Source of the DNA: an uncultured bacterium
GTDB taxonomy: Bacteria > Caldisericota > Caldisericia > JAAYUI01
NCBI GenBank assembly: GCA_965370295.1
Contig: CBDUSO010000005.1
Coordinates: forward strand, 7,580 to 71,579
Length of the DNA stretch: 64,000 nucleotides
Reading direction: 5' to 3'
The notes under the pieces were generated by a model. The model had not been told where the DNA came from and searched no databases. It saw only the letters and a list, made by a program, of their open reading frames with translations. How positions within the stretch are numbered: the stretch's first letter is position 1; every line of letters starts with the position of its first letter. Below, in pieces: positions 19,986 to 61,636 of this stretch. The position numbers were made by a program, and so were the translations under genes.

Positions 19986-20223
19986 AGGGGAAAATCCAGA
20001 CATCACCATCATCCCTTTGCAATTAACATTAAATATGTATCAACAACTTGACGGGGGTGGGTAGCCTATTATAATTAATGATACCTTAACATAAGAAAAT
20101 TACCAAACTAGAAACTTTCTCAAGGTTAAGAGTAGTTAAGACCGGTGACAAAGGGGTGTCACCGATAGTGTGCTAAAATGGAGAGTGTCCATTGGACAAA
20201 ATTCTCAAAAGGAGAAAAAGGAA

Positions 20224-20778: not shown

Positions 20779-20840
20779 TATCACAAGTACCTAAACCAGA
20801 TAATTGCAATCGTCCCATTCAACTAATAGAAGGGAAAGAA

Positions 20841-34946: not shown

Positions 34947-35665
34947 CGACCCGAAATCAAAAGCGGAATAAAAACTCCAAGACTTTTGAATAATCTTGGA
35001 ATCCTTACGAATGGTTCGACCGCTGCTCTCCACAACCACTCCAGACCAATTCTGCACATCCATGCGGGGGCTCTTTTTTTTGATCCAGCCCAAACATCAA
35101 ATACTCCGCCAACGCCGATAAAAAACTTGATATTTTTTAACTGACTTCTATTTTTTGAAATCCAAAGTTCTTGTTTGGGAATTCCGAGTGCAACGAGGAG
35201 AATCTCTGCATTGGATTTGTTTATTGACTCAATAAGAGTATCGTCATCAAATTCATATCCAGACATAAAACCAACCACTTCAATGTTTGGGAATTTATTT
35301 TCAACCGATTCTTTTGCTTTTTTTACAATTTCATCTTTTGCACCAAACAAAAAAACTTTTGTGCTAGGTTTTGAAGTTTTGAGAATGCTCTCGGTTAATT
35401 CAATTCCGGGGATTCGTTCGGTTACTTTTTTACCAAAACGTTTCAACAGAATAACCGAACCGATTCCATCAGGGACAAGAATATCAGCTTGCAAGCAGGT
35501 ATTTAGAAATTCAGAATCCCTCTTGCAGAGGGTAACAGATTCCAGGTTTGCAGTGATAATAAACTTCGATTTTTTATCAAACGAATTCCCCAAATCTGAC
35601 GTGAGTTGTGGAATGCTACCCAGATACCAGTTTGAAGAATTCAGGAGTTGCGAGCTACCACTCAT
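34943..35665 (-). CDS. tagA: WecG/TagA/CpsF-family glycosyltransferase (N-acetylmannosaminyltransferase-like)
   Basis: 240 aa. DILVPDGIG..., LFGA..., VGFMSGY and LLVALGIPKQE segments typical of Glyco_tran_WecB family. Confidence 0.75.
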   Translation of the reverse strand: MSGSSQLLNSSNWYLGSIPQLTSDLGNSFDKKSKFIITANLESVTLCKRDSEFLNTCLQADILVPDGIGSVILLKRFGKKVTERIPGIELTESILKTSKPSTKVFLFGAKDEIVKKAKESVENKFPNIEVVGFMSGYEFDDDTLIESINKSNAEILLVALGIPKQELWISKNRSQLKNIKFFIGVGGVFDVWAGSKKRAPAWMCRIGLEWLWRAAVEPFVRIPRLFKSLGVFIPLLISGR

Positions 35666-38082
35666 GGATATTCTGCAATGATTTTGTCGCCTTCGAGTAT
35701 GATGGAGCCACCAAGAGATTCGACCACAAATCGGAGTGGCACGATTGGGTATCTATTCTTGAACAGGTATGTTGGGGAGTATGCTTCTATTTTCTCTCCG
35801 TCGAGATATGCTCTCTTTTCGTCTATGATTAACCTTAGTTTTTTCCCGTCCAGGTAGTAGTCTATTTTCTTCTCATCACGATCGTAATAGGCTGTGCCAC
35901 CGAGTTCTTCAACGATAAACCTGAAGTAAACGTAGTATCGATAATAATTTGTATCGATGTGCGGGGCAGGATAAACGTTTATTGTTTTGCCATTTGCTTC
36001 AACATTGTTATGACCCTGCCTCATGACAATCCGTTTAACTTTTCCATCAAAAAACTTTGATGTAACCGGTATTATTTGAATTCCACCGTTACAGATTATT
36101 GAGATGTTGCCCTCTCGTTGACCTTCTTTTGCGTTTTCACCAACCGCCCAAACTGTGACTTCAACCTCACCATTAAACTCTGATGGGACCACTTCGATCC
36201 AGTCAGTGTCGGTTGTGATTTTGCCAAAAATTGTTCCACTGCCGGTATTCATCAGATGGATTATGCGAGATCGTTTTGTGGAGAGAGGAACTTTTTCAAA
36301 AATGATTTCATCGGTGTCGACGAATAGTTTAGGTAGACCGCCAAAATTAGAGAGTGGGACTTTCAATATCCTGCTGTTTGCTGTGTCTGAGATGAAAACA
36401 GATAATCCAGAAATTGTGATTCCAGATGGCTGGTTTAAAAGTTCAAGATTGTCGTTGTCTGACAAAGATTTAAGGCTGGATAATGGTCCACCAAATTCAC
36501 CATAGCTGCCAAGTTCAAAGCCACTCTCAGAAAAGACTCGAATGTCTGATACCCCGGCATCACAAATAAAAACTCTTCCGAATTCGTCAATTGTGATTGA
36601 AGATGGCTTTGTGAAAGCAACACCCGCAAGCGATTCGATAAATTTTCCCTGTGGATCGAAGATGAGTACTTCACCTAAATCTTCGTCAACCACCCAGATT
36701 CTGTCCTGTGAGTCGATTGCAACATCAACAGGTGCCGATAGTTCGTCGTCAAATGAAAAAACCCAAGTGCCACTCATGGAAACTGATGCGACACGAGAAT
36801 TTCCTGTGTCTGCTACAAAGATATTGCCTGTTTTTTTATCGATGCCAATTCCCCGCGGTACTCTGAATTGACCTGCACCACTTCCCTCTTCTCCGAAGCC
36901 AAACAAATGATCACCAAACAGAGAATAGATTTGAATTCTGTTGTTTCCGGTATCTGCAACCACCAGATCGTCTCTTGTTGAAATATCACAGTCTTCTGGA
37001 TTTTTGAGATTTGTTGATTCGGTTCCCTGAGAACCAATGCTCTGAATGTGTTCACCAGTTTCAGTTGAATAAACATTTATGAAGTCGGAACTTGACTCTG
37101 AAACATAGATGTAGCCGTCCGCTGTTGTGATTCCTTTGGGCCAGAGTGAAACCCCTTTGAGTCCTATTGAGTAGAGTTGCTTGTTGCCGTCGAGTTTTAA
37201 GATTCGGTTATTTCCAGTGTCTGCCACCCACAAGATTCCGTTTGCGTCTACCACAAAGCCGGTTGGGTATCTAAATTGGCTTGAACCAATTCCATGTTCT
37301 CCAATTGTTTTTAATAGTTTTCCCTTTGGCGAGAATATTTGAATCTTGGAATTTCCAGTGTCTGAAACATAAACAGAGTTTCCTGAGATTCCAACACATG
37401 ATGGTGATGAAAGAATTCCATCACCGATAGTTCGGATGAAACTACCAACTCTATTAAAAACTGATACTCGATCGTTGCCGTTATCAACTACGTAAACGTT
37501 GTCATTTTCATCAACGGTTAAGTCAGTAGGATTTGCGAGTTCTCCATCTCTTGAGCCCTCTCGACCGATCGAATACAAGAAAACTCCGGATGAAGCAAAT
37601 ATTTTTACCTGGCAAGTTGCCTGGTCAAGAACAAGCATTTCTCCCTTGGAGTTGTATGCAAGCGAAACGGGTTTAATTACGCCACAATCAGGGTTGTCAG
37701 AGAAGTGCATGTTATCAAGAAATTTTCCACGTCTGTCAAAAAAAGAAATTTTCCCGCTTAAGGGGTCGCAGATGATATATCTGGAACCAGAATCCTTGAT
37801 AACTTTTGTGGGATAGATTGACATTCCATCGCCAAAAGAGCTGATGAATTCACCCTCTGTGTTGAGTATTTTAATCTGACCATTCCCGGTGTCGGCAATG
37901 ATTAGTTTTTTGGCATCAAGATCAACAAACAATGATCGCGGGTATTTGAAATGTGCTTTTTCGGAAAGAATTCCAATAACATCAATCTCGCTTACAGATG
38001 CTCTAATGGTAACAAAAAAAAGAATCATCGTCATTGCCAGGGACAGAGAGATAAAGGAGTGAATCTTGGAGTGTTTCTTCAT
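35662..38082 (-). CDS. Secreted NHL-repeat (six-bladed beta-propeller, multiple copies) protein with C-terminal copper-amine-oxidase-N-like wall-associated domain
   Basis: Start at MKKHSKIHSFISLSLAMTMILFF (ATGA overlap with upstream gene). >10 repeats of the V.D.G.I.V.D..N.RI/V pattern. C-terminal YPIVPLRFVVESLGG-type domain. Confidence 0.65.
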   Translation of the reverse strand: MKKHSKIHSFISLSLAMTMILFFVTIRASVSEIDVIGILSEKAHFKYPRSLFVDLDAKKLIIADTGNGQIKILNTEGEFISSFGDGMSIYPTKVIKDSGSRYIICDPLSGKISFFDRRGKFLDNMHFSDNPDCGVIKPVSLAYNSKGEMLVLDQATCQVKIFASSGVFLYSIGREGSRDGELANPTDLTVDENDNVYVVDNGNDRVSVFNRVGSFIRTIGDGILSSPSCVGISGNSVYVSDTGNSKIQIFSPKGKLLKTIGEHGIGSSQFRYPTGFVVDANGILWVADTGNNRILKLDGNKQLYSIGLKGVSLWPKGITTADGYIYVSESSSDFINVYSTETGEHIQSIGSQGTESTNLKNPEDCDISTRDDLVVADTGNNRIQIYSLFGDHLFGFGEEGSGAGQFRVPRGIGIDKKTGNIFVADTGNSRVASVSMSGTWVFSFDDELSAPVDVAIDSQDRIWVVDEDLGEVLIFDPQGKFIESLAGVAFTKPSSITIDEFGRVFICDAGVSDIRVFSESGFELGSYGEFGGPLSSLKSLSDNDNLELLNQPSGITISGLSVFISDTANSRILKVPLSNFGGLPKLFVDTDEIIFEKVPLSTKRSRIIHLMNTGSGTIFGKITTDTDWIEVVPSEFNGEVEVTVWAVGENAKEGQREGNISIICNGGIQIIPVTSKFFDGKVKRIVMRQGHNNVEANGKTINVYPAPHIDTNYYRYYVYFRFIVEELGGTAYYDRDEKKIDYYLDGKKLRLIIDEKRAYLDGEKIEAYSPTYLFKNRYPIVPLRFVVESLGGSIILEGDKIIAEYP

Positions 38083-38621
38083 ACTGGAATAATCACCTTC
38101 TGTTGTAGAAGTTTGCTTATCAATTGTGCACTGACCGCCGCACTCATCGGGCAATCATCGATTAATCGTTTGATTGTCCTTGTTCCGTCAACCAGAATTA
38201 AAAAATTCCATTCATTCGAATCAAGTTGAAGTTTATCTTGATTCTCAAGTCCAGCCTTGTTTACAATTAATTTTGTCTCCATCGGTGGAAGGTTTATCAT
38301 GATTTCGTGCGTTTTTGTTGCTTTTTTCAAGCCCTCTCTAATTAAAGTGCTGTTACTCTCTTTGATCGTTTGAGGGGGGATTGTTATTCCGTCACTGAAA
38401 ATTATTTGTCCTTTTGTCCATGAGAATAATTCCCAGATAGCCTTTGTACCTTGGTCGCGGCTTGTTGTTGCGTGAATAATTTGCCCTTTGCTGAAGTAGA
38501 TGGAGGCATGTTCACTGGTTTCAAGAAGTTGAATCTGTAATCTGCCTGAGCGACCCGCAACCTCAACAATCTGAATCAACTCAGCCAGAGTCGTTTCTCT
38601 AAGGTTTAATGGAAGATCCAA
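38079..38621 (-). CDS. DUF4388 domain-containing protein
   Basis: N-terminal LRETTLAELIQIVEVAGRSGRLQI pattern characteristic of DUF4388. Confidence 0.55.
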   Translation of the reverse strand: MDLPLNLRETTLAELIQIVEVAGRSGRLQIQLLETSEHASIYFSKGQIIHATTSRDQGTKAIWELFSWTKGQIIFSDGITIPPQTIKESNSTLIREGLKKATKTHEIMINLPPMETKLIVNKAGLENQDKLQLDSNEWNFLILVDGTRTIKRLIDDCPMSAAVSAQLISKLLQQKVIIPV

Positions 38622-45415: not shown

Positions 45416-45443
45416 TTGACAACGAATATCCGTTTGCTATAAT
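45416..45443 (+). promoter_or_regulatory. Near-consensus sigma70 promoter (TTGACA, 16 nt spacer, TATAAT) driving the giant S8 peptidase gene through a ~145-nt leader
   Basis: TTGACA at 45416-45421 and TATAAT at 45438-45443 read directly. Confidence 0.55.
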
Positions 45444-45590: not shown

Positions 45591-48500
45591 ATGAGAAAGG
45601 TTAAGCTATTATCCGTATTGCTTGCCGTAATTATGGTCTTACCCATGGCGGTAGGCCTCGGAATGAGGGTCACAGCAGATGATGGCCCACTGATGGAGTT
45701 ACTAGTTTACGTAACGAATCCTGGTGACAGAAATACTTTTGAGAGTATGAAACTTCCTGATCTCACACACTATGCCTCAGGTTCAATACTCACTGAAGCC
45801 ACTGAGAGTCAGATGCTCACTCTCGCCAATAAGAATATTGAGTATATTGTAATTGGACGAGTGGACTATCGTAACATCAATGGCGTTGTGATGACTGTTG
45901 AAGACAAAAAACTCAAGATGGTAGACGAGCCCAAGGGTTGGTACGCCAAGTATGCTGATGCAACCTATGAAGGGTACGATTTTGCATATTATCTTGTTGA
46001 TTTTGTTGGACCACTCAAAAGGGCATGGATTGATAAGGTCACAAATATGGGTGGAAATATCATGGATACATACCCATTGTTTGAACAGACCTACCTGGTC
46101 CGAATGGATAAGGATAAGATTGCAGAGCTGACTCAGCTTGATTTTGTTAGAGCCACCTGCATTCACAGTCCAATTCATAAGACTAATATTTGGCCAAAAA
46201 ATGAAGACAGCACCTACATGCGTTCTGTCAACATAACAATTGCAGGAAATCTTCCCTATGCCGAACTTGAGGAGATTTCAATTCTGCTTAGGAATTTTGG
46301 ATGCAAGACTTTCCTCCAGGCAAAAATTGATAAGTTTGATGCAAACGAATCTCCACCTCGTCCAGAGGGAATGTCGGATGAAGAGTATGGGCAGATGGTT
46401 GATGTTTGGAATGAAGAGCATCAAATGGAGGGGGAGTATTACAGCTCGGCAATCGATGATGAGGGTCATACTGTAAGAGATGCTGCCCAGATAATTATGT
46501 TTGGTACTGTTGGACCAACAAAACCACTTGGTATCGAATTGAAGGATGAGGGTCCATACGAACTTGCTTTTGTAAGAGTTGTATGCCCGATGAGGTCAAT
46601 TGCAGATATTGCCCTTATCCCTCAAGTATTAGACATTGATATGTTTGCAGCTCCAGAAGCTCAGAACGATCTTGCCAACTGGCAGATTGGTTCATATGCA
46701 GCGTGGGCCGCAAACGAATCAACAGCCATTGTAACTGATCCTACCGATGCATTACCGCATGACAGACTTGATCACTTCGGTCTTCATGGTGAGTCTTTTA
46801 TTCCAACCACATGTTTTCTCCCAACAGTTTCAGATCCAAATAACCATGATCATTACAGACAGATTGTTGCAATCGTTGGTACCGGTCTTGATACCGGTGA
46901 TGTAGGCTCAACATACAGTATATCAACCCAATACTCAACAAATCCAGTTGGAGACTTTGCAGGTCGTGTGGTTGACCATCTTGCTTATGTAAGGCCAACC
47001 AACACAAATTTCTACAATACAGATCGTGATACCAGATGGCGTTGGAACCCAACAAACGGTGGTGGAACTCGAGTACCGAGATGGAATTGGGTTACAACCA
47101 GTTATTATAATGGTGCACAGGAAAACCCCGGTTTTGTTGGTTCAAGAGGGTATCCCTGGATGGATTGGGATGGGCATGAAACACACGTAACAGGTTCTGG
47201 TTTTGGTGATGGCTATTGGTCAATTGGACATACCCCTGACGACAGTTGGGATCAAGATGGACGTGAGCCATACGATCCAGGTACTGTTGGTGTTATTGCT
47301 GATGGTGTTCCCGGAACACCACACATGCCTCCAAACCTTCCTGCTCCATACGGTGTTCAACCAGCCGGATCAACACCTGCTGGTAACTGGGATTATCGAG
47401 GAGTTGCATATCGTGCAGGACTCGTTGTACAGAGAGTAACTGCGAACAATTTCTCAAGAGCTCGTGATAGTGGTCAGGGACAGAACGGTAACACAAATTA
47501 TTATTTCTGGGGCTACGCAGGTAGACCAACATATCTTGGTCTCTATCAAGTAATCGCACCGGGTCCGGGATACTGGTATCTAAGAGCACAGGATTCCATG
47601 TTCGCAATCATGAATGATGCCTACCTCGTTGGTGCACGTATTCAGGTAAACGCATGGGTTGTCCCACATCGTGGACGTTCTGCTGGTTGGGCTGCTTATC
47701 CAAATTCTTCTGGAGACAGAGAAATCAGCTATGATCCTGCAGTACACAATGCAAACGAATACAACTTCTTCTGCACTCAGATGGACAGATTCACCTGGGA
47801 ACAGAAAGACATGCTCCTGGTTCAAGCTGGAACAACAAACACACGTTTAGCAGCACCATTTATCTACGACTATGAATGGTACAATTATACACCAAGAACA
47901 TTACCAGATGGTGCCAGATGGGAACGAGATCAGAGTCCGACATATTATAGTTCTCCATGGTGTTATACCACCCCACCAACACATGATTGGTTTATGGGGA
48001 TTCCTTATCCAGTACTAACCCCCAACGTCGGTGTTTATTATCCACCAATCGGTGATACCTCAACAAACCTTCCTTTGGAGTTTAACTACTATTATCATCA
48101 GACAGTAAATTCGACTCAACCACCGACAACTCAGCAGTCATCATGGCCGATGGGAAATGCAGATGGAAAGGCAGATTTTGGAACATCCGCACTTTCACCA
48201 GCAACCGCCAAAAACCCAATTACAGTTGGTGCTTCCGAGTCATATAGAAACATTCGGACTGTTCAAACAATAATGCCAACCAACCCAACTGGTGGACCAA
48301 CCCCTCCTGTTGCTACAAACAGGGGACCTTGGACATATGGAAATGCTTATTCAGAAGTGGATCATATCAGTTGGTTTCCAGCTGAACCTCTCTTCTCAGA
48401 TAATACTGCAAACTCAGATTCACCTTACACAACCGATAACAATGGTGGCACGCTTCATGAGAGTGATTGGTGGCTTGGTGAAACAAATGGTGGCACATTC

Positions 48501-49733
48501 GGATACAGCCAACCAATACCAATAACAACCGGTTACGGTCAAGTTGCTGCATTCTCAGGAAGAGGACCAACACCAGACCTCGATTACTCACATGGTGATC
48601 CAGAACCCTCAACTTGGGAAACAGCTGGAAGATACAAACCAGATATCGTTGCTCCTGGTACTCAGATCATGTCCTCCGCTTCATATCTTACACTTCAAGA
48701 GATAGGTTATTATGATCCAACCACAAATGGCAGACGTTATACCGGAAACAACTATAATGGTCAAAGACAAGTCCAAGCTGGTGAGCAGGGTGGACCATAC
48801 CTAGGCAGACACACATCAACTGATAGCCCAACCGGTCGTGCTGATGGCAATATGTATAAACACTATGCACTCATGGAAGGCACATCTTGTGCAACCGGTT
48901 TTGTTGCTGGTGCTGCTGCTGTCACAAGACAGTTCTATGAAAACAGGGGACTCTATATGTATCCAAATCCTTCCTCTGCTCTCATCAAAGCAACCTTAAT
49001 CCATGGAGCAAGAAACCTCGGTGGACAACCTGGTTATGATGCTCAGGCACCAGGTGCAGGATACGGTGCATGGGAATGGCTCTCAGCCAAACCAAGCTAT
49101 AGTCAAGGCTTCGGAAGACTCGACATAAAGAGATCTCTATACCCAGATCCACCAACCTACACACTTTTTGAAGATCATGATAGTGGTATCACAACCGGTG
49201 AAAAACATTATTTCTACTATGATGTCACCGACAACACTGTCCCATTTGAAGCAACTCTTACTTACATCGATATGCCAAAACTTCCAAACCCACAGGTAGC
49301 ACTCGCAAATGACCTTGATCTCATTGTCATTGACCCAGGCGGAACAGAGTATCATGGTAACATCTATACAACCGACCCACACATTGACCAGCACACAAAC
49401 AAGTATGAATCTTGGGGTCGTACATCGGCTGCAAACCCAGGTGGAACCAACTTCGACAGAAGAAATAATGTTGAACGCGTTGTTATCCCACCAAACCAGG
49501 TTAAAGAGGGTCGCTGGACAATATCAATATCCGGTGCTCGCGTAGAACAGTCTTCCACAAACATTCCACAGCTCTATGCGTTCCTTGTTTCTGGTGGAAA
49601 CCTTGCTGTTGCCGTTGCTCCAGCTCCAGAAGTTCCCGCACTCACACCAATGTCACTCCTCCTCGTTATCCTTGGACTCATAGGAGTCGGTGCATTCTTT
49701 ATTATCAGAAAAAAGGCAATGATTGTTGCATAA
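45591..49733 (+). CDS. Giant secreted subtilisin-like serine peptidase (S8 family) with large insertions and C-terminal PEP-CTERM-like sorting signal
   Basis: Signal peptide. Asp box VAIVGTGLDTGD, His box GHETHVTGSG, Ser box MEGTSCATGFVAGAAAV. C-terminus PEVPALTP + 21-aa hydrophobic helix + RKK (tripartite sorting signal). ATG at 45591 with GGAAAGGAAAAGG RBS; the long ORF starts at an upstream TTG. Confidence 0.75.
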   Translation: MRKVKLLSVLLAVIMVLPMAVGLGMRVTADDGPLMELLVYVTNPGDRNTFESMKLPDLTHYASGSILTEATESQMLTLANKNIEYIVIGRVDYRNINGVVMTVEDKKLKMVDEPKGWYAKYADATYEGYDFAYYLVDFVGPLKRAWIDKVTNMGGNIMDTYPLFEQTYLVRMDKDKIAELTQLDFVRATCIHSPIHKTNIWPKNEDSTYMRSVNITIAGNLPYAELEEISILLRNFGCKTFLQAKIDKFDANESPPRPEGMSDEEYGQMVDVWNEEHQMEGEYYSSAIDDEGHTVRDAAQIIMFGTVGPTKPLGIELKDEGPYELAFVRVVCPMRSIADIALIPQVLDIDMFAAPEAQNDLANWQIGSYAAWAANESTAIVTDPTDALPHDRLDHFGLHGESFIPTTCFLPTVSDPNNHDHYRQIVAIVGTGLDTGDVGSTYSISTQYSTNPVGDFAGRVVDHLAYVRPTNTNFYNTDRDTRWRWNPTNGGGTRVPRWNWVTTSYYNGAQENPGFVGSRGYPWMDWDGHETHVTGSGFGDGYWSIGHTPDDSWDQDGREPYDPGTVGVIADGVPGTPHMPPNLPAPYGVQPAGSTPAGNWDYRGVAYRAGLVVQRVTANNFSRARDSGQGQNGNTNYYFWGYAGRPTYLGLYQVIAPGPGYWYLRAQDSMFAIMNDAYLVGARIQVNAWVVPHRGRSAGWAAYPNSSGDREISYDPAVHNANEYNFFCTQMDRFTWEQKDMLLVQAGTTNTRLAAPFIYDYEWYNYTPRTLPDGARWERDQSPTYYSSPWCYTTPPTHDWFMGIPYPVLTPNVGVYYPPIGDTSTNLPLEFNYYYHQTVNSTQPPTTQQSSWPMGNADGKADFGTSALSPATAKNPITVGASESYRNIRTVQTIMPTNPTGGPTPPVATNRGPWTYGNAYSEVDHISWFPAEPLFSDNTANSDSPYTTDNNGGTLHESDWWLGETNGGTFGYSQPIPITTGYGQVAAFSGRGPTPDLDYSHGDPEPSTWETAGRYKPDIVAPGTQIMSSASYLTLQEIGYYDPTTNGRRYTGNNYNGQRQVQAGEQGGPYLGRHTSTDSPTGRADGNMYKHYALMEGTSCATGFVAGAAAVTRQFYENRGLYMYPNPSSALIKATLIHGARNLGGQPGYDAQAPGAGYGAWEWLSAKPSYSQGFGRLDIKRSLYPDPPTYTLFEDHDSGITTGEKHYFYYDVTDNTVPFEATLTYIDMPKLPNPQVALANDLDLIVIDPGGTEYHGNIYTTDPHIDQHTNKYESWGRTSAANPGGTNFDRRNNVERVVIPPNQVKEGRWTISISGARVEQSSTNIPQLYAFLVSGGNLAVAVAPAPEVPALTPMSLLLVILGLIGVGAFFIIRKKAMIVA

Positions 49734-49788
49734 CAAGCTAACAGTGGAATATGTTAGCTAGACAGAGTCATTGATAAGAAATAAAAAA

Positions 49789-49817
49789 GGGAGTCTTTTA
49801 CGAGACTCCCTTTTTTT
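49789..49817 (+). terminator. Rho-independent terminator after S8 peptidase gene
   Basis: GGGAGTCT TTTAC GAGACTCCC followed by T7. Confidence 0.6.
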
Positions 49818-49888: not shown

Positions 49889-50491
49889 ATGAGCAACTTC
49901 GTTGAGAAAACTATAGACAACATAAGACAGTATAAATCCGTAATATTATGGATTATTTTCAGTGTATTGATAGCAATTGTACTGCAGATAATCACACACA
50001 TGAATATACCAACCCTGAACGTAATGGGGGTTCGTGAGGTATACCTGAATCCGATGCAAAAGGGTTTGACCTATGCTGTGAGTTTCCCGCTTATTGGAAT
50101 AATGAAAGTGTTTGGTGTTACGGCAAGTTTTGAATCGGTATTTGGTGGGATGAATGGAGCTTTTATAAATCTCAGCGGATTCAGGATGGAAGTAATTTAT
50201 GAGTGTACTGGAATTTATGCTTGGATAGTTTATTCAGCAGCAGTTCTTGCTTACCCGACAGGAAATTATCTAAAAAATATCTGGGGATTCTTGATTGGAT
50301 TCCCCGCAATATACATCGTTAATTTGTTCAGATTCATCATTCTTGGGCTCGTTGGTGCATACTGGCCAAATGCGTTTGATTTCATACATGCCTATCTGTG
50401 GCAACTAATTATGATCGGTTTCTTGATATTGCTTTTCTGGATATTTGTTTCAAAGGTTGTTAAAGAAGCACCACCAAAAAAGACCAAGTAA
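49889..50491 (+). CDS. Exosortase/archaeosortase-family transpeptidase, minimal ~200-aa form
   Basis: Polytopic. Conserved Cys in EC-T-G context (YECTGIYAW, C106) and Arg in N-x-x-R context (IVNLFRF, R148), ~42 residues apart as in characterised exosortase/archaeosortase active sites. Confidence 0.65.
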   Translation: MSNFVEKTIDNIRQYKSVILWIIFSVLIAIVLQIITHMNIPTLNVMGVREVYLNPMQKGLTYAVSFPLIGIMKVFGVTASFESVFGGMNGAFINLSGFRMEVIYECTGIYAWIVYSAAVLAYPTGNYLKNIWGFLIGFPAIYIVNLFRFIILGLVGAYWPNAFDFIHAYLWQLIMIGFLILLFWIFVSKVVKEAPPKKTK

Positions 50492-50495
50492 ACAC

Positions 50496-50984
50496 AAGAT
50501 GACCACAAGATCAGCGTTTATTTTAAGAATTTCTGTAACGACAGTAGTTGTATTCACGCTTTGGACGCTGGTTGCAAAATGGTATGCGTTATTGGTTGAC
50601 TCTGCCGTAAGTGGGATGATTTGGAATATTGGTTTTTATGTTGAAAGATCATCAGGTGTGGAAACATCACTTCTTAGTCCGTTGATACCGTTCATAATAT
50701 TAATGATCGGAACTTGGGGTGTCGAATTTATCTATAGAGATAGAAAACTAAACTACAAATTGTTGCTGTGGTTTATTTTTATCTGTCTGATGCTCTTGGG
50801 TTTTACAATCCTTGGGCAGTACCTGGCTGTTTATATGGCAGTTTCAAACACCTTTTCACAAACAATGTTGAACATGACAAGCTTCTTTATCGCAACGGTT
50901 CCATTGCTTGTTCCCGTTGTTGCATGGTATGGCTTGTCAAAAGAAAAACTGAACCAAATAATGTCAAAAAAACCTGCAAAGTAA
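50496..50984 (+). CDS. Small polytopic membrane protein, candidate exosortase-system-associated partner
   Basis: Start chosen at MTTRSAF, just after the exosortase stop. 4 TM helices. Adjacent, same strand, no intervening terminator. Confidence 0.4.
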   Translation, partial: KMTTRSAFILRISVTTVVVFTLWTLVAKWYALLVDSAVSGMIWNIGFYVERSSGVETSLLSPLIPFIILMIGTWGVEFIYRDRKLNYKLLLWFIFICLMLLGFTILGQYLAVYMAVSNTFSQTMLNMTSFFIATVPLLVPVVAWYGLSKEKLNQIMSKKPAK

Positions 50985-50990
50985 GCTAAA

Positions 50991-51566
50991 TTATTTTGTA
51001 AATCTTGATCCGGGTGAATTTATTGGAACACCATCTTTGCATAAAGGGCATTCGTCAGGGTTGTAAGTTTTCACTTCCATACTGATGAGTGGAGTGAATT
51101 TCCAAGGAAAACTTGCTTTTCCACCTGACCTGTCGACAAGCGAACAGATACCAACAACATTTGCACCAAGCGATTCGGCGACCTTCCCAACTTCGGCAAC
51201 TGAGCCACCGGTTGTTACAACATCCTCACACAGAAGGACACGTTCACCTTTTTCAAGTGAGAACCCCCTTCTAAATGTCATCTTGCCGTCTCTTCTTTCT
51301 GCAAAAATATTTCTCACGCCAAACGCTCGACTCATTTCATACGCAAAAATTATTCCACCAACTGCAGGACCAATGATCGTTTGGACATCGAGATTCCCTA
51401 GTTTTTCTTTTAATAGTTCGCATAAAAGCTGGCTTTTTTCTGGGTACTGAAAAACTTTTGCACACTGAATGTATGTTCCAGAGTGTAAACCAGATGAGAG
51501 TTTGAAGTGTCCGGTTGTAATTGCGGATGTTGATTTTAAGATTTCCATTGGGTTGTTATTTGGCAT
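50991..51566 (-). CDS. pyrE: Orotate phosphoribosyltransferase
   Basis: GHFKLSSGLHSG and PRPP-binding VLLCEDVVTTGGS. Start at ATG with GGAGA RBS (MPNNNP). Confidence 0.85.
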   Translation of the reverse strand: MPNNNPMEILKSTSAITTGHFKLSSGLHSGTYIQCAKVFQYPEKSQLLCELLKEKLGNLDVQTIIGPAVGGIIFAYEMSRAFGVRNIFAERRDGKMTFRRGFSLEKGERVLLCEDVVTTGGSVAEVGKVAESLGANVVGICSLVDRSGGKASFPWKFTPLISMEVKTYNPDECPLCKDGVPINSPGSRFTK

Positions 51567-52278
51567 TTTCCATCTCCTCAATTATTTGTTTTGCTTCAGT
51601 AGCAGGATTGTCACTTTGGTAAATTGGTCTTCCGACAACGATGTGGCTTGCTCCGGATTTGATGGCAAGCCCTGGGGTCATCACTCTTTTTTGGTCGCCA
51701 AGGTCGTCAGTTTTTCTTCTGATTCCAGGGGTTACCACAAGGAAGTCATTCCCAAATGTTTCCCTGAGCATGGTGAGTTCTTTGGCAGAACAGACCAGTC
51801 CATCACATCCATTTGTGAGTGCAATTTCTGCAAGCCTTTTCACGGCTGTTTCGATGTTGTTGTCAGGAATTCCGATTTCATTCAAACTGTTAGTGTCGAA
51901 TGATGTTAAAATGGTAACTCCGAGGAGTTTCGGTTTATCTCTTCTGGTTTTTTCTGCCCAATTGTTGATTCTCTCACGAGACTTTTTTATCATCTCAGCT
52001 CCACCTAAGGCATGCAGGTTGAACATTGAAACTCCGAGCTCACAGGCTACCTCACAGGCATCTGCGACCTGGTTTGGAATATCAAAAAACTTTAGATCAA
52101 GGAAAATATTCCTGCCCATGGAGGAGATTTCTCTGACAATTTCTGGTCCGGATGAGTTGAATAATTTCAATCCGATCTTGACCATCACATCAGCAGGAAG
52201 ATTTTTTGAAAGTGATAATGCCTGTTCTCTTGAGACATCAAGTCCAACAATCAACTTTTTGGCTGGATTACTTTCCAT
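51556..52278 (-). CDS. pyrF: Orotidine-5'-phosphate decarboxylase
   Basis: LIVGLDV, DLKFFDIPNQ and catalytic Lys region. 240 aa. Confidence 0.85.
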   Translation of the reverse strand: MESNPAKKLIVGLDVSREQALSLSKNLPADVMVKIGLKLFNSSGPEIVREISSMGRNIFLDLKFFDIPNQVADACEVACELGVSMFNLHALGGAEMIKKSRERINNWAEKTRRDKPKLLGVTILTSFDTNSLNEIGIPDNNIETAVKRLAEIALTNGCDGLVCSAKELTMLRETFGNDFLVVTPGIRRKTDDLGDQKRVMTPGLAIKSGASHIVVGRPIYQSDNPATEAKQIIEEMENAK

Positions 52279-53185
52279 GTGCGACTCCTGTTATTTCAGA
52301 AAAATTTGAGAATCCATTATCATTTGCCCAAATGCTCATCTCGTCTGCAATCTCTTGCATAGCCAGTGGATTCTTCATGGTTGCAGTTCCAACTTGAACC
52401 ATGGAGGCACCTGCCATGAGGAATTTTATTGCATCCAATCCAGTTGAAATTCCGCCACAGCCGATGATGGGAATTTTGACCTCTTTGTAGATTTCCCAGA
52501 CACAACGAAGAGCAAGCGGAAGGATTGAGGGTCCGGAATAACCCCCCGTGATATTTCCAAGTGTTGGTTGTCTTTTGTTTATGTCGATGTCCATTCCAAC
52601 AAATGTATTTGAAACTGTTACCGCGTGTGCTTTGCCCTCTTTGGCGGCTTTTGCAATTGAAACAATATCTGTGACATTGGGACTCAACTTGACGATTATG
52701 TGTTTGTTGGTTCTAACTCTGATTCGAGATGTTAAGGATCGAACCTGGTCGGCTGATGTCCCAAATCTCATTCCCCCAATCGAAACATTTGGGCAGGAAA
52801 CATTGATCTCAAATCCAGCTATCATTGGGTGGTTGCCGATGGTTTCGATGATATTGATATATTCTTCGGGGCTATTACCCGAAACATTCACCCAAATATT
52901 GCAGTCATATTTTTCAAACTGGGGTAATTTATTCTCAATGAAATTTGCTAAACCTTCGTTTTCAAGACCGATGGAATTGAGGATTCCACCGGATATTTCA
53001 ACAATTCTTTGACCAGGATTTCCAGCCCTCGGGCTTGATGTGACAGCTTTTGTGACAAAACCACCAATCTTGCTGTAATCAAGAATATCCTTGTAAATCT
53101 CACCACAACCAAACGTTCCGGATGCGCCAAGAACAGGATTGCTGTACTCTGTTCCGAGGAAGGTTGTTACAGGATCAAAGAACAT
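52268..53185 (-). CDS. pyrD: Dihydroorotate dehydrogenase catalytic subunit (class 1B)
   Basis: NPVLGASGTFG, FMN-binding GGI.TG motifs. Start at MFFDP with GCGAGG RBS; the long ORF's N-extension is discarded. Confidence 0.8.
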   Translation of the reverse strand: MFFDPVTTFLGTEYSNPVLGASGTFGCGEIYKDILDYSKIGGFVTKAVTSSPRAGNPGQRIVEISGGILNSIGLENEGLANFIENKLPQFEKYDCNIWVNVSGNSPEEYINIIETIGNHPMIAGFEINVSCPNVSIGGMRFGTSADQVRSLTSRIRVRTNKHIIVKLSPNVTDIVSIAKAAKEGKAHAVTVSNTFVGMDIDINKRQPTLGNITGGYSGPSILPLALRCVWEIYKEVKIPIIGCGGISTGLDAIKFLMAGASMVQVGTATMKNPLAMQEIADEMSIWANDNGFSNFSEITGVAHGK

Positions 53186-53936
53186 CAGAGACCTCGCTTG
53201 CCGGGAAAACCGGACCATCAGTGCATACATGCTTTTGACCGGATTTTGTTTGAATCTGGCAACCCAGACAGGCACCAATTCCACATCCCATGTATGCTTC
53301 AAGACTGAATTCGACTTGGGTATTCCAGTCTTTCACCAAATTCCAGAGAGCCTTCAGCATGGGTTTTGGACCACATGCAAAAACGTGTGCAGGTGGAATT
53401 AATTTCTGTTGCATAAGTTCGATGACATTTCCATAAAATCCGACAGAACCATCATCGGTTGCAATTTCAGAGTTCTCAGGGAGAAAGTTAATTTCTGGAA
53501 GAAAGTCTTTTGAGCGACCACCGAGATACAAGGTTGAATTGATTTTATCCTTCAAATAGTTTGAGAGAAACAGAACCGGAGCAATCCCAGTTCCACCACC
53601 AACAAGATAACAATTCTCTGAATCTGGAAGAGTGAAACCGTTACCGAGAGGACCAAGAACGGTGACTATCTCCCCCTCGTTCATCCTGGATAAGGTTTCA
53701 GTTCCTTTGCCAACAATCTGGTATAAAATCTCGACCAGTCCAAACTTTTGGGTGTTCATTATCCCAAAGGGTTTTGGTAAAACACATCCTGGAATTCCAA
53801 GTTCCACGAACTGTCCAGGTTTACCTGTGAGTGCAATTGTCGGTTCAAAAAAAGTCAGGAGTTTGAGTTTGCTTCCGGGGATTTCAATGTTTGAAACAAT
53901 CTCAACTCGACTAAATATCTGCTTGGATTTTTCCAT
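53175..53936 (-). CDS. pyrK: Dihydroorotate dehydrogenase electron-transfer subunit
   Basis: FAD/NAD-binding ferredoxin-reductase fold plus C-terminal 2Fe-2S Cys cluster (CGIGACLGCQ). Confidence 0.85.
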   Translation of the reverse strand: MEKSKQIFSRVEIVSNIEIPGSKLKLLTFFEPTIALTGKPGQFVELGIPGCVLPKPFGIMNTQKFGLVEILYQIVGKGTETLSRMNEGEIVTVLGPLGNGFTLPDSENCYLVGGGTGIAPVLFLSNYLKDKINSTLYLGGRSKDFLPEINFLPENSEIATDDGSVGFYGNVIELMQQKLIPPAHVFACGPKPMLKALWNLVKDWNTQVEFSLEAYMGCGIGACLGCQIQTKSGQKHVCTDGPVFPASEVSDVL

Positions 53937-55206
53937 CCAGATAAACTGTCCTTCCAGAAACGATTGTGGCGTGAACCTTGCCCTTCAGCTTTCTGCCACT
54001 AAGTGGTGTATTTTTTCCTAAAGAGTGGAATTCGTTTGGATTTACTGTCCATTCTTTGTTTGGATCAATGATTGTGATGTCTGCTTTTTCTCCAACTTTG
54101 ATTATTGGTTTTTTCAGACCCATGACCTTTGCGGGACCGATTGTCATTTTTGAGAGAATCAATTCTGGCGAAACGATTCCTGTGTGAACAAGTTCGTTGA
54201 AGAGTAGCCCGATTGCAGTTTCAAATCCGCTGATACCAGGAGGTGCAAGATCAATCTCAACCTCTTTGTCTTCGCGTGCATGTGGGGCGTGGTCGGTTGC
54301 GATGCAGTCGATTGTGCCGTCAAGAAGAGCGTTGCGACATGCTTCTACATCTTTACTATTCCTAAGTGGGGGGTTCACTTTGCAGTTTGAGTTGTAGGTT
54401 CCAAGCAATTCGTCGGTCAGGGTCAGGTGGTGAGGGGTAACCTCGCAGGTTACTTTTGTTCCCTGGGCCTTGCTCTGCTTGATGAGTTCCACAGACCAGT
54501 TGGTTGAAACGTGGAGGATGTGAAGTCTTGCATCTGCTTCATGAGCCAGGATTAAGTCTCTTGCGACCATGGTTTCTTCGGCAGATTTTGGGATTGGATT
54601 CAGTCCGTAGAGTGTTGCAAAATATCCCTCACTGCAGACACCTTTTCCAGACAAGCTCAAATCTTCACAGTGGTTTGCAACCAGAAGGTTGTATGCCTTG
54701 GAATATTTGAGAGCAAGAAGCATGAGGTTTGCAGATGAAATTGGTGAGCCATCATCGGTGACCATTTTGACACCAGCTCTTGCGAGCCCGCCCATCTCAG
54801 CGAGGAATTTGCCCTCTCGATTCCTGGAGATGCATCCGATTGGCTCAACATTTACGATGCCCATGTCTTCCGTGCGTCTCTTGATGTAAAGTGCGGTGGC
54901 TTCGTTGTCGCAAGGGGGTTCGGTGTTTGGCATTGCAAAGATGGTGGTAAATCCACCGGCGGCTGCCGCTCTTGTCGCAGTTGCAATTGTTTCTTTGTGT
55001 TCGAAGCCGGGTTCACGAATGTGGGCATGAATGTCAATCAGTCCAGGACTGATGAGCATCCCCTTGCAATCAATGGTTTCATCACCAGAGAGATTGCTTC
55101 CGATTTTTGAAATTTTTCCATTTTCAATCAGGACATCACTCTCAAGGCTCTCAAGTTTTTCGACATCAACAATTTTTCCACCTTTAAGCACTGTGGATTT
55201 ATTCAT
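53911..55206 (-). CDS. pyrC: Dihydroorotase
   Basis: DIHAHIREPG (HxH), carboxylated-Lys region, DHAPH motif. Start at MNKSTVL with GGAGGTG RBS. Confidence 0.85.
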   Translation of the reverse strand: MNKSTVLKGGKIVDVEKLESLESDVLIENGKISKIGSNLSGDETIDCKGMLISPGLIDIHAHIREPGFEHKETIATATRAAAAGGFTTIFAMPNTEPPCDNEATALYIKRRTEDMGIVNVEPIGCISRNREGKFLAEMGGLARAGVKMVTDDGSPISSANLMLLALKYSKAYNLLVANHCEDLSLSGKGVCSEGYFATLYGLNPIPKSAEETMVARDLILAHEADARLHILHVSTNWSVELIKQSKAQGTKVTCEVTPHHLTLTDELLGTYNSNCKVNPPLRNSKDVEACRNALLDGTIDCIATDHAPHAREDKEVEIDLAPPGISGFETAIGLLFNELVHTGIVSPELILSKMTIGPAKVMGLKKPIIKVGEKADITIIDPNKEWTVNPNEFHSLGKNTPLSGRKLKGKVHATIVSGRTVYLDGKIQADI

Positions 55207-56125
55207 TTGATTCACCTCCAAGCAGGAGATATAGAACTGCCATTCTGATTGCCACTCCGTTTGTAACTTGCTCTGTGATTGTGGCGTTTTTTGATTCTGC
55301 AACACCCGGGTCAATCTCGATTCCTCGGTTCATTGGACCGGGGTGCATTATCGTGAGGTCTGGGTGTTTTGCCAGTCTGGCATTGGTCATTCCGTACTGT
55401 TCATAGTATTCGTGAGAGGTTGAGAACATTCCTTGTTTTTGTCTCTCAAGTTGGATTCTAAGAATGTTCACAACGTCATAATCAGGGAGTGCCTTGTCGA
55501 GGTTGTAGTGAACTTTCACTCCCAAATCCTCAATATTTTTTGGGAGCAAGGTTGGGGGGGCACATAGTCCGACTTCTGCACCCATCGCCTTCAAGCCAAA
55601 AATATTTGATCTTGCGACTCGTGAATGTCTTACATCGCCAAGAATCAGAACACGTTTTCCTTCGATGCTTCCAAGCCTCTCTTTGATTGTGTAGAGGTCG
55701 AGAAGTGCCTGTGTCGGGTGTTCGTTGACACCATCACCAGCATTTAAAACATGTCCACCGAAGAATGTTGAGATGAAGTGAGGAGCTCCGCACATTGACG
55801 TTCTGATTACGATGTAATCAGCACCAAGTGCGGTCAGGGTGAGAACGGTATCCTTCAAACATTCACCCTTTTGAACAGCTGAGGTTGAAGCATTTATGTT
55901 GATAACATTTGCGGAGAGTGTTTTTGCAGCCAGCTCAAAACTTGTTCGTGTTCTTGTTGATGGCTCCATGAAGAGGTTTACAACTGTTTTACCACGTAGC
56001 ACTGGAGCTTTTTTTATTTCACGACCAAGCAGTTCCTTGAAGCTCTCAGCAGAATCCAGAATCAGGCTTATCTCATCCCGACTCATATCCTTGAGTCCCA
56101 GCAGGTGTTTTCGTTTCAAACCCAT
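55199..56125 (-). CDS. pyrB: Aspartate carbamoyltransferase catalytic subunit
   Basis: STRTR, HPTQ and HPGP motifs. Start at ATG (MGLKRKHL) with GGAGG RBS. Confidence 0.9.
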   Translation of the reverse strand: MGLKRKHLLGLKDMSRDEISLILDSAESFKELLGREIKKAPVLRGKTVVNLFMEPSTRTRTSFELAAKTLSANVININASTSAVQKGECLKDTVLTLTALGADYIVIRTSMCGAPHFISTFFGGHVLNAGDGVNEHPTQALLDLYTIKERLGSIEGKRVLILGDVRHSRVARSNIFGLKAMGAEVGLCAPPTLLPKNIEDLGVKVHYNLDKALPDYDVVNILRIQLERQKQGMFSTSHEYYEQYGMTNARLAKHPDLTIMHPGPMNRGIEIDPGVAESKNATITEQVTNGVAIRMAVLYLLLGGESNE

Positions 56126-56224
56126 CTTTTCCAACCTCCTTGACTATCTCTTTTTCTAGTTTTTCTCAAAAAAAAACCCTGGCAACGATACAAGCCAGGG
56201 TCTGTTATTTCAGTTTGTAGATTA

Positions 56225-56773
56225 TCAATCTACCTTCTCTCCAATAATCACACGATCTTGACCATCGATTTCTTCAACCATAACCTCAACCACCTCGGAG
56301 AAAGATGTTGGAACTTGCTTGCCAACATAATCTGCACGAATTGGAAGCTCTCTGTGTCCACGGTCAATGATTACAGCGAGTTGAATTTTTTTGGGTCTTC
56401 CAAGGTCTGTGAGTGCATCCATTGCAGACCTGATCGTTCGACCGGTGAAGAGAACGTCATCAATGAGTATTACAACGCGACCCTTGATGTTGAAGTCAAC
56501 GGAAGTTCTATGGACCTTTGGTGTTTCATAGAGAAGGGAGAGATCATCACGATAAAGTGTGATGTCAAGTTCACCAACAAGTGGTTTTTTGCCCTCAGTT
56601 TCTTCAATCTTTTTTGCAATTCGGTGGGCAAGTGGAACACCACGCCGGTGAATACCGATGAGTGCAATCCCTTCAACCCCACGATTGTTTTCAGTAATTT
56701 CATGTGAAATTCTAGCAATGACCCTACCGACATCCTCTTTTTCCAGCAGAATTTTTTTGATCTTTAGTTCCAT
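56225..56773 (-). CDS. pyrR: Pyrimidine operon regulator / uracil phosphoribosyltransferase PyrR
   Basis: 182 aa. PRTase motif ILIDDVLFTGRTIRSAMDAL and characteristic PyrR N-terminus. Confidence 0.85.
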   Translation of the reverse strand: MELKIKKILLEKEDVGRVIARISHEITENNRGVEGIALIGIHRRGVPLAHRIAKKIEETEGKKPLVGELDITLYRDDLSLLYETPKVHRTSVDFNIKGRVVILIDDVLFTGRTIRSAMDALTDLGRPKKIQLAVIIDRGHRELPIRADYVGKQVPTSFSEVVEVMVEEIDGQDRVIIGEKVD

Positions 56774-60272: not shown

Positions 60273-60336
60273 TTGGATACGTCACTTGAAAAAAATACTT
60301 TCTGATGATACACTCGAAATGTATAAAAGGAGTCAA

Positions 60337-61134
60337 ATGAAACCTTTTCTGAAATGGCCAGGAAACAAATATAGAATTATTGATAGAATTCAAAAAGTGT
60401 TACCACGTGGGGAAAGACTAATAGAGCCATTTGTCGGTTCGGGTGCTGTTTTCTTAAATACAGATTTTGATGAGTATTTGCTTGCAGATTCAAATAATGA
60501 TCTAATAAATCTATTCAACTTAGTGAAACAGGAAGGAATGGAGTTTATTGCGTATACAAAGGAATATTTTAAAGGAAATAACACTGAAAAACGATTCTAT
60601 GAATTAAGGGAAATCTTTAATTCTATAAATGACGTAGTGAAGAAGTCTGCAATATTCCTGTACTTGAACAAGCATGCATACAATGGTCTGTGTAGATACA
60701 ATAAAAGCGGAAAATTTAATGCTCCTTTTGGTAGGTATAAAAGTCCATATTTTCCGTTTCGTGAATTGAAATATTTTTTAGCTAAGTCTTCTCAAGCCAC
60801 TTTTATCGTGAGTGATTTTAGGGAAACAATGTCAAAAGCAGTTGATGGCGATGTACTATATTGTGATCCACCGTATGTCCCCTTGTCCAAAACTTCCAAC
60901 TTTACAACTTATTCTGCTGGTGGATTTGGGCAAAACGAACAATCTGAACTTGCTGGCTTGGCAAAAAAGCTTTCAAAAAGAAATATACCTGTTGTGATTT
61001 CTAATCATGCGACCGAATATACTTGTAATGCGTATAGATCTGCAAAAGTTGATTCATTTGATGTAAGACGTTTTATTAGTTGTAAGGGATCAGAAAGAAA
61101 CAAAGTGAAAGAACTTATAGCAATATTTTCATAG
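60337..61134 (+). CDS. dam: DNA adenine methyltransferase (Dam family, alpha-group N6-MTase)
   Basis: FLKWPGNKYRII, SAM motif EPFVGSGAVFLN, catalytic DPPY (LYCDPPYVP). AAAGGAG RBS. Confidence 0.85.
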   Translation: MKPFLKWPGNKYRIIDRIQKVLPRGERLIEPFVGSGAVFLNTDFDEYLLADSNNDLINLFNLVKQEGMEFIAYTKEYFKGNNTEKRFYELREIFNSINDVVKKSAIFLYLNKHAYNGLCRYNKSGKFNAPFGRYKSPYFPFRELKYFLAKSSQATFIVSDFRETMSKAVDGDVLYCDPPYVPLSKTSNFTTYSAGGFGQNEQSELAGLAKKLSKRNIPVVISNHATEYTCNAYRSAKVDSFDVRRFISCKGSERNKVKELIAIFS

Positions 61135-61144
61135 GAGCTAGTGT

Positions 61145-61636
61145 ATGTCAGAACAGGGAACGAAAGCAAACAAACAAGGAAAAATACTCGAAGGTACAGT
61201 TAAGTCAGTATTTTTAGCTAAAGGATTCTGTATTGTAAAGTACAAAGATTGGTACAAAAAGCCAGAGAAATATGGTGAGGAATTATTGATAGAGGACGCA
61301 CCCTATGAATCAATATATAACCATAAAGGTAAGATGGAATTTCTAATAATTTCAAAAAAGTATGATCAGCGATTTCGGATTGAGTGTAAATGGCAACAAG
61401 TTGGTGGAAGTGTTGATGAAAAATATCCGTATCTCTATCTTAACTGTATTGAGAAATTAGAAGAGAGTTTAGCAATTATCATTATTGATGGGAAGGGTGC
61501 GAGACAGGGAGCTGTTGATTGGCTGAAAAAAGTTTCGGAAAACAAGTTATACACAAATGATAAAAATAATCACAAAGAAGTGAAAGTTATGAGTTTAGCT
61601 GAATTCATGGTATGGGCTAACAAAATTTTTAATTAG
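61145..61636 (+). CDS. Small hypothetical protein with PD-(D/E)XK-like motif; candidate restriction endonuclease partner of the Dam-family MTase
   Basis: 10-nt spacing after MTase gene, GGAG RBS. ...D...(E/D)-x-K-like IED...EFLII...RIECK pattern. No other recognisable family. Confidence 0.35.
   Translation: MSEQGTKANKQGKILEGTVKSVFLAKGFCIVKYKDWYKKPEKYGEELLIEDAPYESIYNHKGKMEFLIISKKYDQRFRIECKWQQVGGSVDEKYPYLYLNCIEKLEESLAIIIIDGKGARQGAVDWLKKVSENKLYTNDKNNHKEVKVMSLAEFMVWANKIFN

Follow-up and report, generated by a model that had tools for sequence, protein, structure and literature searches.

We describe here a three-gene locus in a 64,000-nucleotide (nt) stretch of DNA, called the window throughout, from an uncultured bacterium of the Caldisericia in the phylum Caldisericota (assembly GCA_965370295.1, contig CBDUSO010000005.1, positions 7,580 to 71,579 of the forward strand). 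Two adjacent open reading frames (ORFs), encoding a sortase homologue of 200 amino acids (aa) and a small membrane protein, its partner, are present where a preliminary description, made from the sequence without database searches, had placed them. Directly upstream lies a gene overlooked in that description, which encodes a giant S8 subtilase and which, from the anatomy of its C-terminus, is the probable substrate of the sortase. We regard it as reasonably likely that the three genes make up a dedicated sorting cassette of the Caldisericia, in which a sortase of the ArtB/XrtH clade would process the protease together with a partner subunit descended from a catalytically dead sortase paralogue. 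The features of the locus, in window positions, are these:

45416..45443, + strand: promoter-like site 5' of the protease gene (TTGACA and TATAAT separated by 16 nt, TG-extended)
45591..49733, + strand: probable substrate, S8 subtilase, 1380 aa
49617..49730, + strand: C-terminal tripartite sorting signal of the protease (motif, hydrophobic helix, basic residues)
49783..49816, + strand: intrinsic-terminator-like hairpin between the protease and sortase genes (15-bp stem, then a T-run)
49889-50491, + strand: sortase homologue, 200-aa ORF, stop codon TAA at 50489-50491
50499-50984, + strand: partner gene, 161 aa, 7-nt spacer after the sortase TAA

The end of the partner gene at 50984 is as first given, and its size and spacing, put earlier at 162 aa and 5 nt, are corrected here: the orthologue N-termini MTTRSAF, MTPKKAF and MSKKITF match a start at ATG 50499, which is therefore preferred to 50496 and leaves a protein of 161 aa behind a 7-nt spacer. 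A longer reading of 179 aa from TTG 50445 found no support among the orthologues and was discarded. Since identical sortase and partner sequences are present in public assemblies, and many metagenomes hold length-conserved homologues of them (43–96% identity), both are real genes and no chance ORFs; one cluster mate is MCK5743540.1, an 'archaeosortase/exosortase family protein [Caldisericia bacterium]'. The protease ORF is open from TTG 45570, and a start at ATG 45591 yields a signal-peptide-like N-terminus (MRKVKLLSVLLAVIMVLPMAVGLG). GC content is about 42%, with no GC anomaly at the sortase/partner locus.

In loci of the window type the gene order is, without exception, prfA-prmC, then S8 subtilase, sortase and partner, then pyrE-F-D-K-C-B. 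The putative promoter of the protease gene, a consensus match only, agrees at 12/12 positions and is the top site in a 6.8-kb scan. In every window-type locus examined, protease and sortase are separated by a strong GC hairpin with a T-run behind it, whose sequence differs from locus to locus, and this conservation suggests separate transcription of the protease gene and the enzyme pair. The layout of these signals further suggests that the substrate gene may be highly expressed and monocistronic, and the enzyme pair expressed separately or weakly. On the other side of the pair, a complete pyrimidine operon (pyrE, pyrF, pyrD, pyrK, pyrC, pyrB and a PyrR/UPRT-like gene; 50991-56773, - strand) converges with the 3' end of the partner gene, an arrangement kept in all window-type loci.

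The sortase passes TIGR04178, the general exosortase/archaeosortase signature (53.7 bits, cut-off 23), and lies slightly below the threshold of Pfam PF09721 (Exosortase_EpsH; 24.2 vs 25.7), a domain for which all its close homologues carry a precomputed annotation. None of the curated subfamily models is passed: archaeosortase B (ArtB; TIGR04144) is the best-scoring, at 88.6 bits against a cut-off of 150, and XrtH (TIGR04177) gives 57.8 against 86, XrtX 50 against 170, and XrtF (TIGR04128) 32.2 against 90, the seventh place among the sortase models. The protein had been noted as short for an exosortase, and it is indeed of the class of the curated small-sortase models, which span 156–174 positions. 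Its catalytic-type residues, Cys106 (50204-50206), Arg148 (50330-50332) and His167 (50387-50389), are invariant over three divergent clades (alignments A2 and A6), as are E101, Y104, E105, T107, G108, N145, W171 and Q172 and hence the motifs EIIYEC106TG (ECTG), N145xxR148 and H167xYxWQ. The AlphaFold2 model (alignment A2; predicted local distance difference test score, pLDDT, 74) places helices at residues 16-36, 55-74, 107-121, 127-158 and 160-191, and a beta-hairpin region at 79-102 immediately before Cys106; a search of PDB sequences with the sortase profile returned nothing relevant, and no structure of any exosortase or archaeosortase. Judged by these profiles and residues, the 200-aa enzyme is a genuine small member of the superfamily outside every curated subfamily. 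Window-type sortases also carry an insertion of about 20 residues, NIPTLNVMGVREVYLNPMQK, in the loop between helix 1 and helix 2 (residues ~37-56; 49997-50056), which contains an invariant NP..K and is missing from the type-2 enzymes introduced below.

The upstream protein matches Pfam Peptidase_S8 (51.1 bits, cut-off 21.8), and the triad motifs DTG, HxTH and GTSxA are kept in six orthologues. An S8 orthologue of 1337–1387 aa stands directly 5' of the sortase in every window-type locus with a complete upstream gene, the Peptidase_S8 match on record being only weak or faint at some of them. The protein ends in APAPEVPALTP, a hydrophobic helix (MSLLLVILGLIGVGAFFII), RKK and then AMIVA, and the consensus of the orthologue tails is P-[PA]-P-[EQD]-V-P-[AT]-x-[ST] followed by the helix and R/K; a literal VPxxxP is found in the tails of the window and of one other locus (L010), and four other orthologues are without it. 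Among the ORFs of the 64-kb window that encode 150 aa or more, a tail search returned, besides the protease, only the sortase with its partner and four ordinary membrane proteins, the protease being the sole non-membrane protein with a tripartite tail. Against the sorting-signal models the tails score 10.8–17.4 bits for VPXXXP-CTERM (TIGR04143, cut-off 30) and 18.9 bits for the Loki-CTERM model (19.9), and the window tail, which has no WG, gives no significant match to IPTLxxWG-CTERM (TIGR04174; expectation value, E, 1.8).

The partner matches nothing in Pfam or NCBIfam even at E<=10. TIGR04127, the model of the XrtF-associated protein, is matched neither by the window partner (E<=1) nor by any of 33 family members (E<=10), and the window protein is therefore not an XrtF-associated protein. 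NF041730 (XrtH_assoc) is likewise not matched by the window partner; 4/33 family members match it weakly (best E 0.022), and the partners found in anaerobic methanotrophic (ANME) archaea reach 16–22 bits against a cut-off of 35. Hydropathy counts give four membrane helices, and the AlphaFold2 model (pLDDT 76.8) has four, at 3-43, 62-77, 86-116 and 121-155; a PDB search returned nothing similar. The core motifs SxLIPFxILMIGTWG and PxLVPVVAW are conserved. At the sensitivity of a narrow profile the family is tiny, with 4 representatives at E<=1e-3 among 1.84 billion proteins; among 5.8 billion proteins, 9 clusters of homologues were found with the single sequence and 25 with a broad alignment, all of them unnamed or plainly misnamed in public annotation. 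NCBI calls the proteins hypothetical, and IMG names in two clusters (P0001 and P0054) are 'DMT-like permease' and 'fatty acid desaturase', neither of which is backed by any profile.

How faithfully the partner accompanies the sortase was judged from about 100 loci, gathered by a scan of GTDB genomes and a scan of metagenomes with sortase alignments. The count was made on loci dereplicated at 90%, for sortases with room downstream, and a partner homologue was sought within 1 kb. It was found there, 3' of the gene, for 39/41 ArtB-like or Caldisericota sortases in the automatic count; the remaining two loci (L016 and L074) are call artefacts, and inspection reveals a partner homologue in both. 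The two genes may overlap at stop and start (ATGA) in orthologues, or lie 240–640 nt apart in a few loci. Starting from the partner instead, three look-ups each showed a gene for 161–181 aa directly upstream, Pfam-marked as an exosortase in two of the three, and sortase-profile matches were found within these loci. Moreover, pairwise identities of sortase and partner co-vary (r=0.92 overall, 0.85–0.92 within clades). The loci fall into three types:

Type 1 (the window): Caldisericia/Caldisericales; S8 subtilase with a PxVPxx[ST] tail; ArtB 88.6 bits, XrtH 57.8 bits
Type 2: other Caldisericota, in a different genomic context; fn3 protein of 1200–1390 aa ending in KTPxFxxWG, helix, KKK; XrtH 64–83 bits
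Type 3: ANME-2, 'Ca. Methanogaster' and Euryarchaeota; neighbours with literal VPxxxP tails, ATGA overlap; ArtB 127–139 bits

A comparison of type-1 with type-2 substrates showed no homology, and type-2 loci carry a 2200-aa Cu_amine_oxidN1 protein downstream. The pair is kept in archaea as well as bacteria and in three genomic contexts unrelated to one another, and considering that cargo and flanking genes vary while the pair stays, the conserved unit is the sortase with its partner. The small membrane protein is a conserved sortase accessory. In this the preliminary description, which had read the downstream ORF as a four-helix, obligate-looking partner and the pair, should that partner be a conserved accessory, as a possible distinct subfamily, is borne out: practically all the related loci examined have the partner behind the sortase, it belongs to no generic transporter family, and no curated model covers the pair.

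Three observations on these loci may be added. The type-2 cargo tails (L018, L020-L029 and L109-L113) read [ML]KTPxFxxWG, helix, KKK, and their P-x-[FL]-x-x-W-G spacing recalls IPTLxxWG; an assignment to that signal was rejected on finding no match to TIGR04174, though type-2 sortases come close to passing XrtH (up to 83.3 bits, cut-off 86). In a Nanoarchaeota metagenome-assembled genome (L019; JAHIYL010000100.1, 3500-11482), several small secreted proteins are encoded around a sortase (ArtB model, 103.6 bits) and a positional partner (partner profile, 31 bits); their C-termini read VPEF or IPEFG, helix, KRKK, a PEF-like tail near an ArtB-like enzyme. Finally, some archaeal partners (L043:434-1114, L073:3846-4481 and L039:2361-3071) bear a cytoplasmic C-terminal extension with CPxCG...H...H, which resembles a zinc ribbon or zinc finger and hints at a regulatory or binding add-on.

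Profile comparisons with hhalign join the partners of all three types. Window partners (A1) align with type-2 partners (A3) at 94.5% (E 8e-8, 153 columns) and with ANME partners (A7) at 97% (E 1e-10, 152 columns), and NF041730-type proteins align with the ANME partner profile at 93.2% (E 3e-7, 144 columns; reversed control 11), the NF041730 set being five downstream proteins, four above the cut-off and one slightly below it (32.7 bits). The alignments are full-length and colinear, the motifs [LIV]P[FL]xxLM[IL]xT and P[FV]xxW are shared, W22, P64, L68, T72 and W143 are invariant, and the position directly 3' of a small sortase is conserved. Some low-scoring sortases of high-GC organisms, candidates for partner-less enzymes, proved to be bona fide XrtH (134–192 bits, cut-off 86) with IPTLSEWG substrates, followed by the NF041730 'exosortase H-associated membrane protein' (61–147 bits, cut-off 35). 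On these profile alignments the window partner belongs, as a strongly diverged branch, to a superfamily in which only XrtH_assoc is curated, and by the same comparisons the known arrangement nearest to it is XrtH/NF041730 rather than XrtF/TIGR04127. The resemblance to the XrtH/NF041730/IPTLxxWG-CTERM system extends to layout, a sortase of about 160–200 aa being followed by a membrane protein of about 150–210 aa with substrates nearby. The window differs from it in that both proteins fall short of the XrtH-system models, in the PxVPxx[ST] tail without WG, in a cargo that appears to be the single adjoining protease, and in its Caldisericia host, the XrtH carriers recovered being high-GC organisms.

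The partners may, in addition, be related to the enzyme itself. With hhalign, ANME partners score 53.1 (93.6%) against their neighbouring sortases and 62.5 (96%, E 5e-9) against a Caldisericota-dominated sortase profile, compared with 11–18 for reversed-alignment controls and a mean of 15–18 (standard deviation 2–4, maximum 33.5) for 160 local-shuffle decoys that keep the hydrophobicity profile. The alignment is colinear and places the sortase segments IYEC106TG, AVLAYP and N145xxR148 on EYAHLV, LIFATP and HxxD of the partner, so that in ANME partners Cys is replaced by His, Asn by His and Arg by Asp. The window partner has Ser57, Phe102 and Leu105 at the Cys, Asn and Arg positions, and therefore no catalytic residue survives in it. 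Weak hmmscan matches of partners to the pacearchaeosortase, ArtE and XrtH models were also recorded, and the helix patterns of the sortase and partner AlphaFold2 models correspond. Since the signal arises solely with the ANME partner family (the type-2 partner profile, for one, has no direct similarity to the sortases), the paralogy of the window partner is only transitive; by way of that family we think it probable, on balance, that the window partner is a catalytically dead sortase paralogue.

Fusions point in the same direction. Four ORFs (L069:2-1009, L075:5803-6879, L080:5839-6822 and the truncated L106:2-670) join a small N-terminal sortase domain, XrtH/ArtB-like, to a partner-like domain, the complete ones encoding 327–358 aa. 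Their C-terminal domain of about 165 aa, which no curated model covers, aligns with the ANME partner profile at 78% (E 2e-5, 130 columns; reversed <=20). Some bacteria thus appear to encode both proteins as a single chain, and we take these fusions as moderate Rosetta-stone support for a physical association of the two proteins. The upstream neighbour in L080 ends in QVPAGN, helix, RKK. A further apparent fusion, of 375 aa in L074, was set aside as the artefact of an ambiguous base.

Several points weigh against the cassette as we read it, and above all against the origin proposed for its partner. Direct hhalign comparison of the window partner profile with sortase profiles shows no similarity (0.1–0.4%), NF041730 members have no detectable similarity to sortases, and the window partner family reaches NF041730 members directly at only 4%, the link being again transitive via the ANME family. 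The fusion evidence comes from four sequences, three of them close relatives, at a moderate 78%. All window-type loci share one syntenic block (prfA-prmC, cassette, pyr operon), and because the whole block is syntenic, adjacency within these loci is by itself weak evidence. The terminator-like hairpin lies between the protease gene and those of the enzyme pair, and co-transcription of the three is thus only putative. The tails, of all three locus types, pass no curated sorting-signal model in the NCBIfam scan, the search for further substrates was confined to the 64-kb window rather than the whole genome, and this branch is known from sequence comparison and predicted models only.

The first of these points bears on the alternative that the partner is a true accessory unrelated to the sortase, for example a handler of the acceptor lipid or a scaffold, and that the ANME similarity is an artefact of hydrophobicity. 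The window-type, type-2 and NF041730 partner profiles, all without significant similarity to sortases, are as this alternative expects, and all the profiles are shallow (effective number of sequences, Neff, 1.8–3.5). The scores of the ANME partners nevertheless lie far outside those of reversed and position-preserving shuffled controls; they are higher against the Caldisericota-dominated profile than against that of the partners' own neighbours, independent comparisons agree on the register, and the hmmscan matches to three curated sortase models point the same way. We consider an unrelated accessory rather unlikely.

A second alternative takes the locus for a plain archaeosortase B (VPXXXP-CTERM) system acquired from archaea, with novelty only in the host. 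ArtB is, after all, the top-scoring curated model, the window tail holds a literal VPALTP and its core is VPxxxP-like, a rough neighbour-joining tree puts the window clade sister to the ANME ArtB-like clade, and IMG names members of the sortase cluster 'archaeosortase B'. Moreover, the ArtB-like loci of ANME-2 carry the same pair of sortase and partner, stop and start overlapping. Enzyme and tail are, however, well under the cut-offs of the models for that system of Methanosarcinales/ANME, the second proline of the motif is missing in most orthologues, the enzyme has the extra loop after helix 1 relative to other clades, and the hosts are bacterial; on these grounds we hold a plain ArtB system to be quite unlikely. 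The partner would be unreported even then: ArtB has no curated partner model and no mention of a partner in the literature searched, and the archaeal proteins are annotated 'hypothetical protein'. The more distant ArtA of Haloferax volcanii (PGF-CTERM) belongs to the same enzyme superfamily, acts on substrates with a tripartite C-terminal signal and is the experimentally studied model of cleavage and covalent lipid anchoring, for which conserved residues are required (PMC7157517 and work cited there). Its model spans 271 positions and gives the window enzyme 31 bits against a cut-off of 75; unlike the window cassette, ArtA has many substrates, and its known helpers, PssA and PssD, are lipid-synthesis enzymes and no paralogous membrane subunit.

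The preliminary description had likened the pair to the XrtF system of Bacteroidota, exosortase F with its system-associated protein (TIGR04128 and TIGR04127). As a concept the label is apt, the size class and gene order being the same, with a small membrane protein directly after a small sortase. In Flavobacterium johnsoniae the XrtF partner is experimentally needed, delta-xrtF and delta-Fjoh_1449 (the XrtF-associated gene) mutants sharing phenotypes (PMC10936215), and by analogy partners of this sort can be essential. Membership, however, fails at the level of sequence, where neither window protein belongs to its XrtF family, and the host is a member of the Caldisericia, not of the Bacteroidota, so we regard an XrtF-type system as highly improbable. 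That the downstream ORF should be a generic transporter or permease, or its adjacency mere synteny with no functional link, is hardly credible at all: the one IMG name 'DMT-like permease' looks like noise because another cluster of the same family is called 'fatty acid desaturase', a DMT/EamA-type permease was rejected when no transporter family model in Pfam or NCBIfam was matched (E<=1 to 10), and for all the wider synteny common to window-type loci, the pair stays together in three unrelated contexts and in archaea while flanks and cargo change.

Returning to the dedicated cassette, we suggest the following mechanism. The 1380-aa subtilase would be exported via its N-terminal signal peptide and held in the membrane by the C-terminal helix and the RKK stop-transfer residues. 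The Cys106/Arg148/His167 centre of the sortase, predicted to sit on the outer face of the membrane, would recognise PxVPxx[ST] just outside the helix and cleave off the tail, and the mature protease would then be passed to a putative acceptor or released. The partner, presumably co-translated with the sortase, would be an obligatory non-catalytic subunit derived from an ancient sortase duplicate that lost Cys, Arg and His. Its best-conserved motif would lie on the helix equivalent to the active-site helix of the sortase, and it most likely would assist in binding the tail of the substrate or the acceptor, or else stabilise the enzyme. More generally, and tentatively, since we think the proposal somewhat more apt to be wrong than right, all small sortases of the ArtB/XrtH clade, archaeal and bacterial, may be obligate pairs of an active and a dead paralogue that arose by tandem duplication and were sometimes re-fused, the dead subunit binding tail or acceptor.

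Elsewhere in the window, a low-GC stretch (60286-61636, + strand; GC 0.362 at 60-62 kb) encodes a D12-class N6-adenine DNA methyltransferase (207 bits), followed by a PD-(D/E)XK nuclease (PDDEXK_11, 165 bits), and is probably a small restriction-modification island. Two further stretches of low GC and high GC skew lie at 20170-21839 and 30874-32223 (both + strand); at 20-22 kb there are two ORFs with signal-peptide-like N-termini and no Pfam match, and at 30.9-32.2 kb there is a radical-SAM protein. Cu_amine_oxidN1 domains occur in two secreted proteins of the window, with AhpC/TSA at 9492-10400 (+ strand) and with an NHL beta-propeller and BACON at 35662-38154 (- strand), and are C-terminal in the 2200-aa proteins downstream of type-2 partners. 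This domain may be the usual envelope-attachment module of the phylum, in contrast to the sortase route of the protease.

For XrtF and XrtH, the databases already describe a module of sortase and associated membrane protein; the literature searched on XrtH/IPTLxxWG and on sortase-associated membrane proteins held nothing on partners beyond XrtF of F. johnsoniae. As far as our searches reach, three things are unrecorded: the uncurated Caldisericia subfamily, which has a distinct tail motif and a giant subtilase as its dedicated cargo; the occurrence of this partner family beside ArtB-like enzymes of ANME archaea; and the evidence for a descent of the partner from the enzyme and for occasional fusion of the two. 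To our knowledge, exosortases and archaeosortases, widespread as they are, have hardly been studied mechanistically outside ArtA. Should small sortases depend on a dead paralogue as their second subunit, reconstitution of the enzyme alone would fail, and annotation pipelines would be overlooking half of the enzyme under names such as 'hypothetical', 'DMT permease' and 'fatty acid desaturase'. In that case the Caldisericia cassette, with one enzyme and one substrate, would be a minimal example suited to reconstitution, a simple test system of a 200-aa enzyme, a 161-aa partner and an adjoining substrate with a defined 38-residue tail. It also places an ArtB-like system in a bacterial phylum, the Caldisericota, whose cell envelope is, as far as we know, poorly known, and its task there would be the anchoring or release of a giant subtilase, one that probably matters to the breakdown of proteins in sediments and anaerobic digesters.

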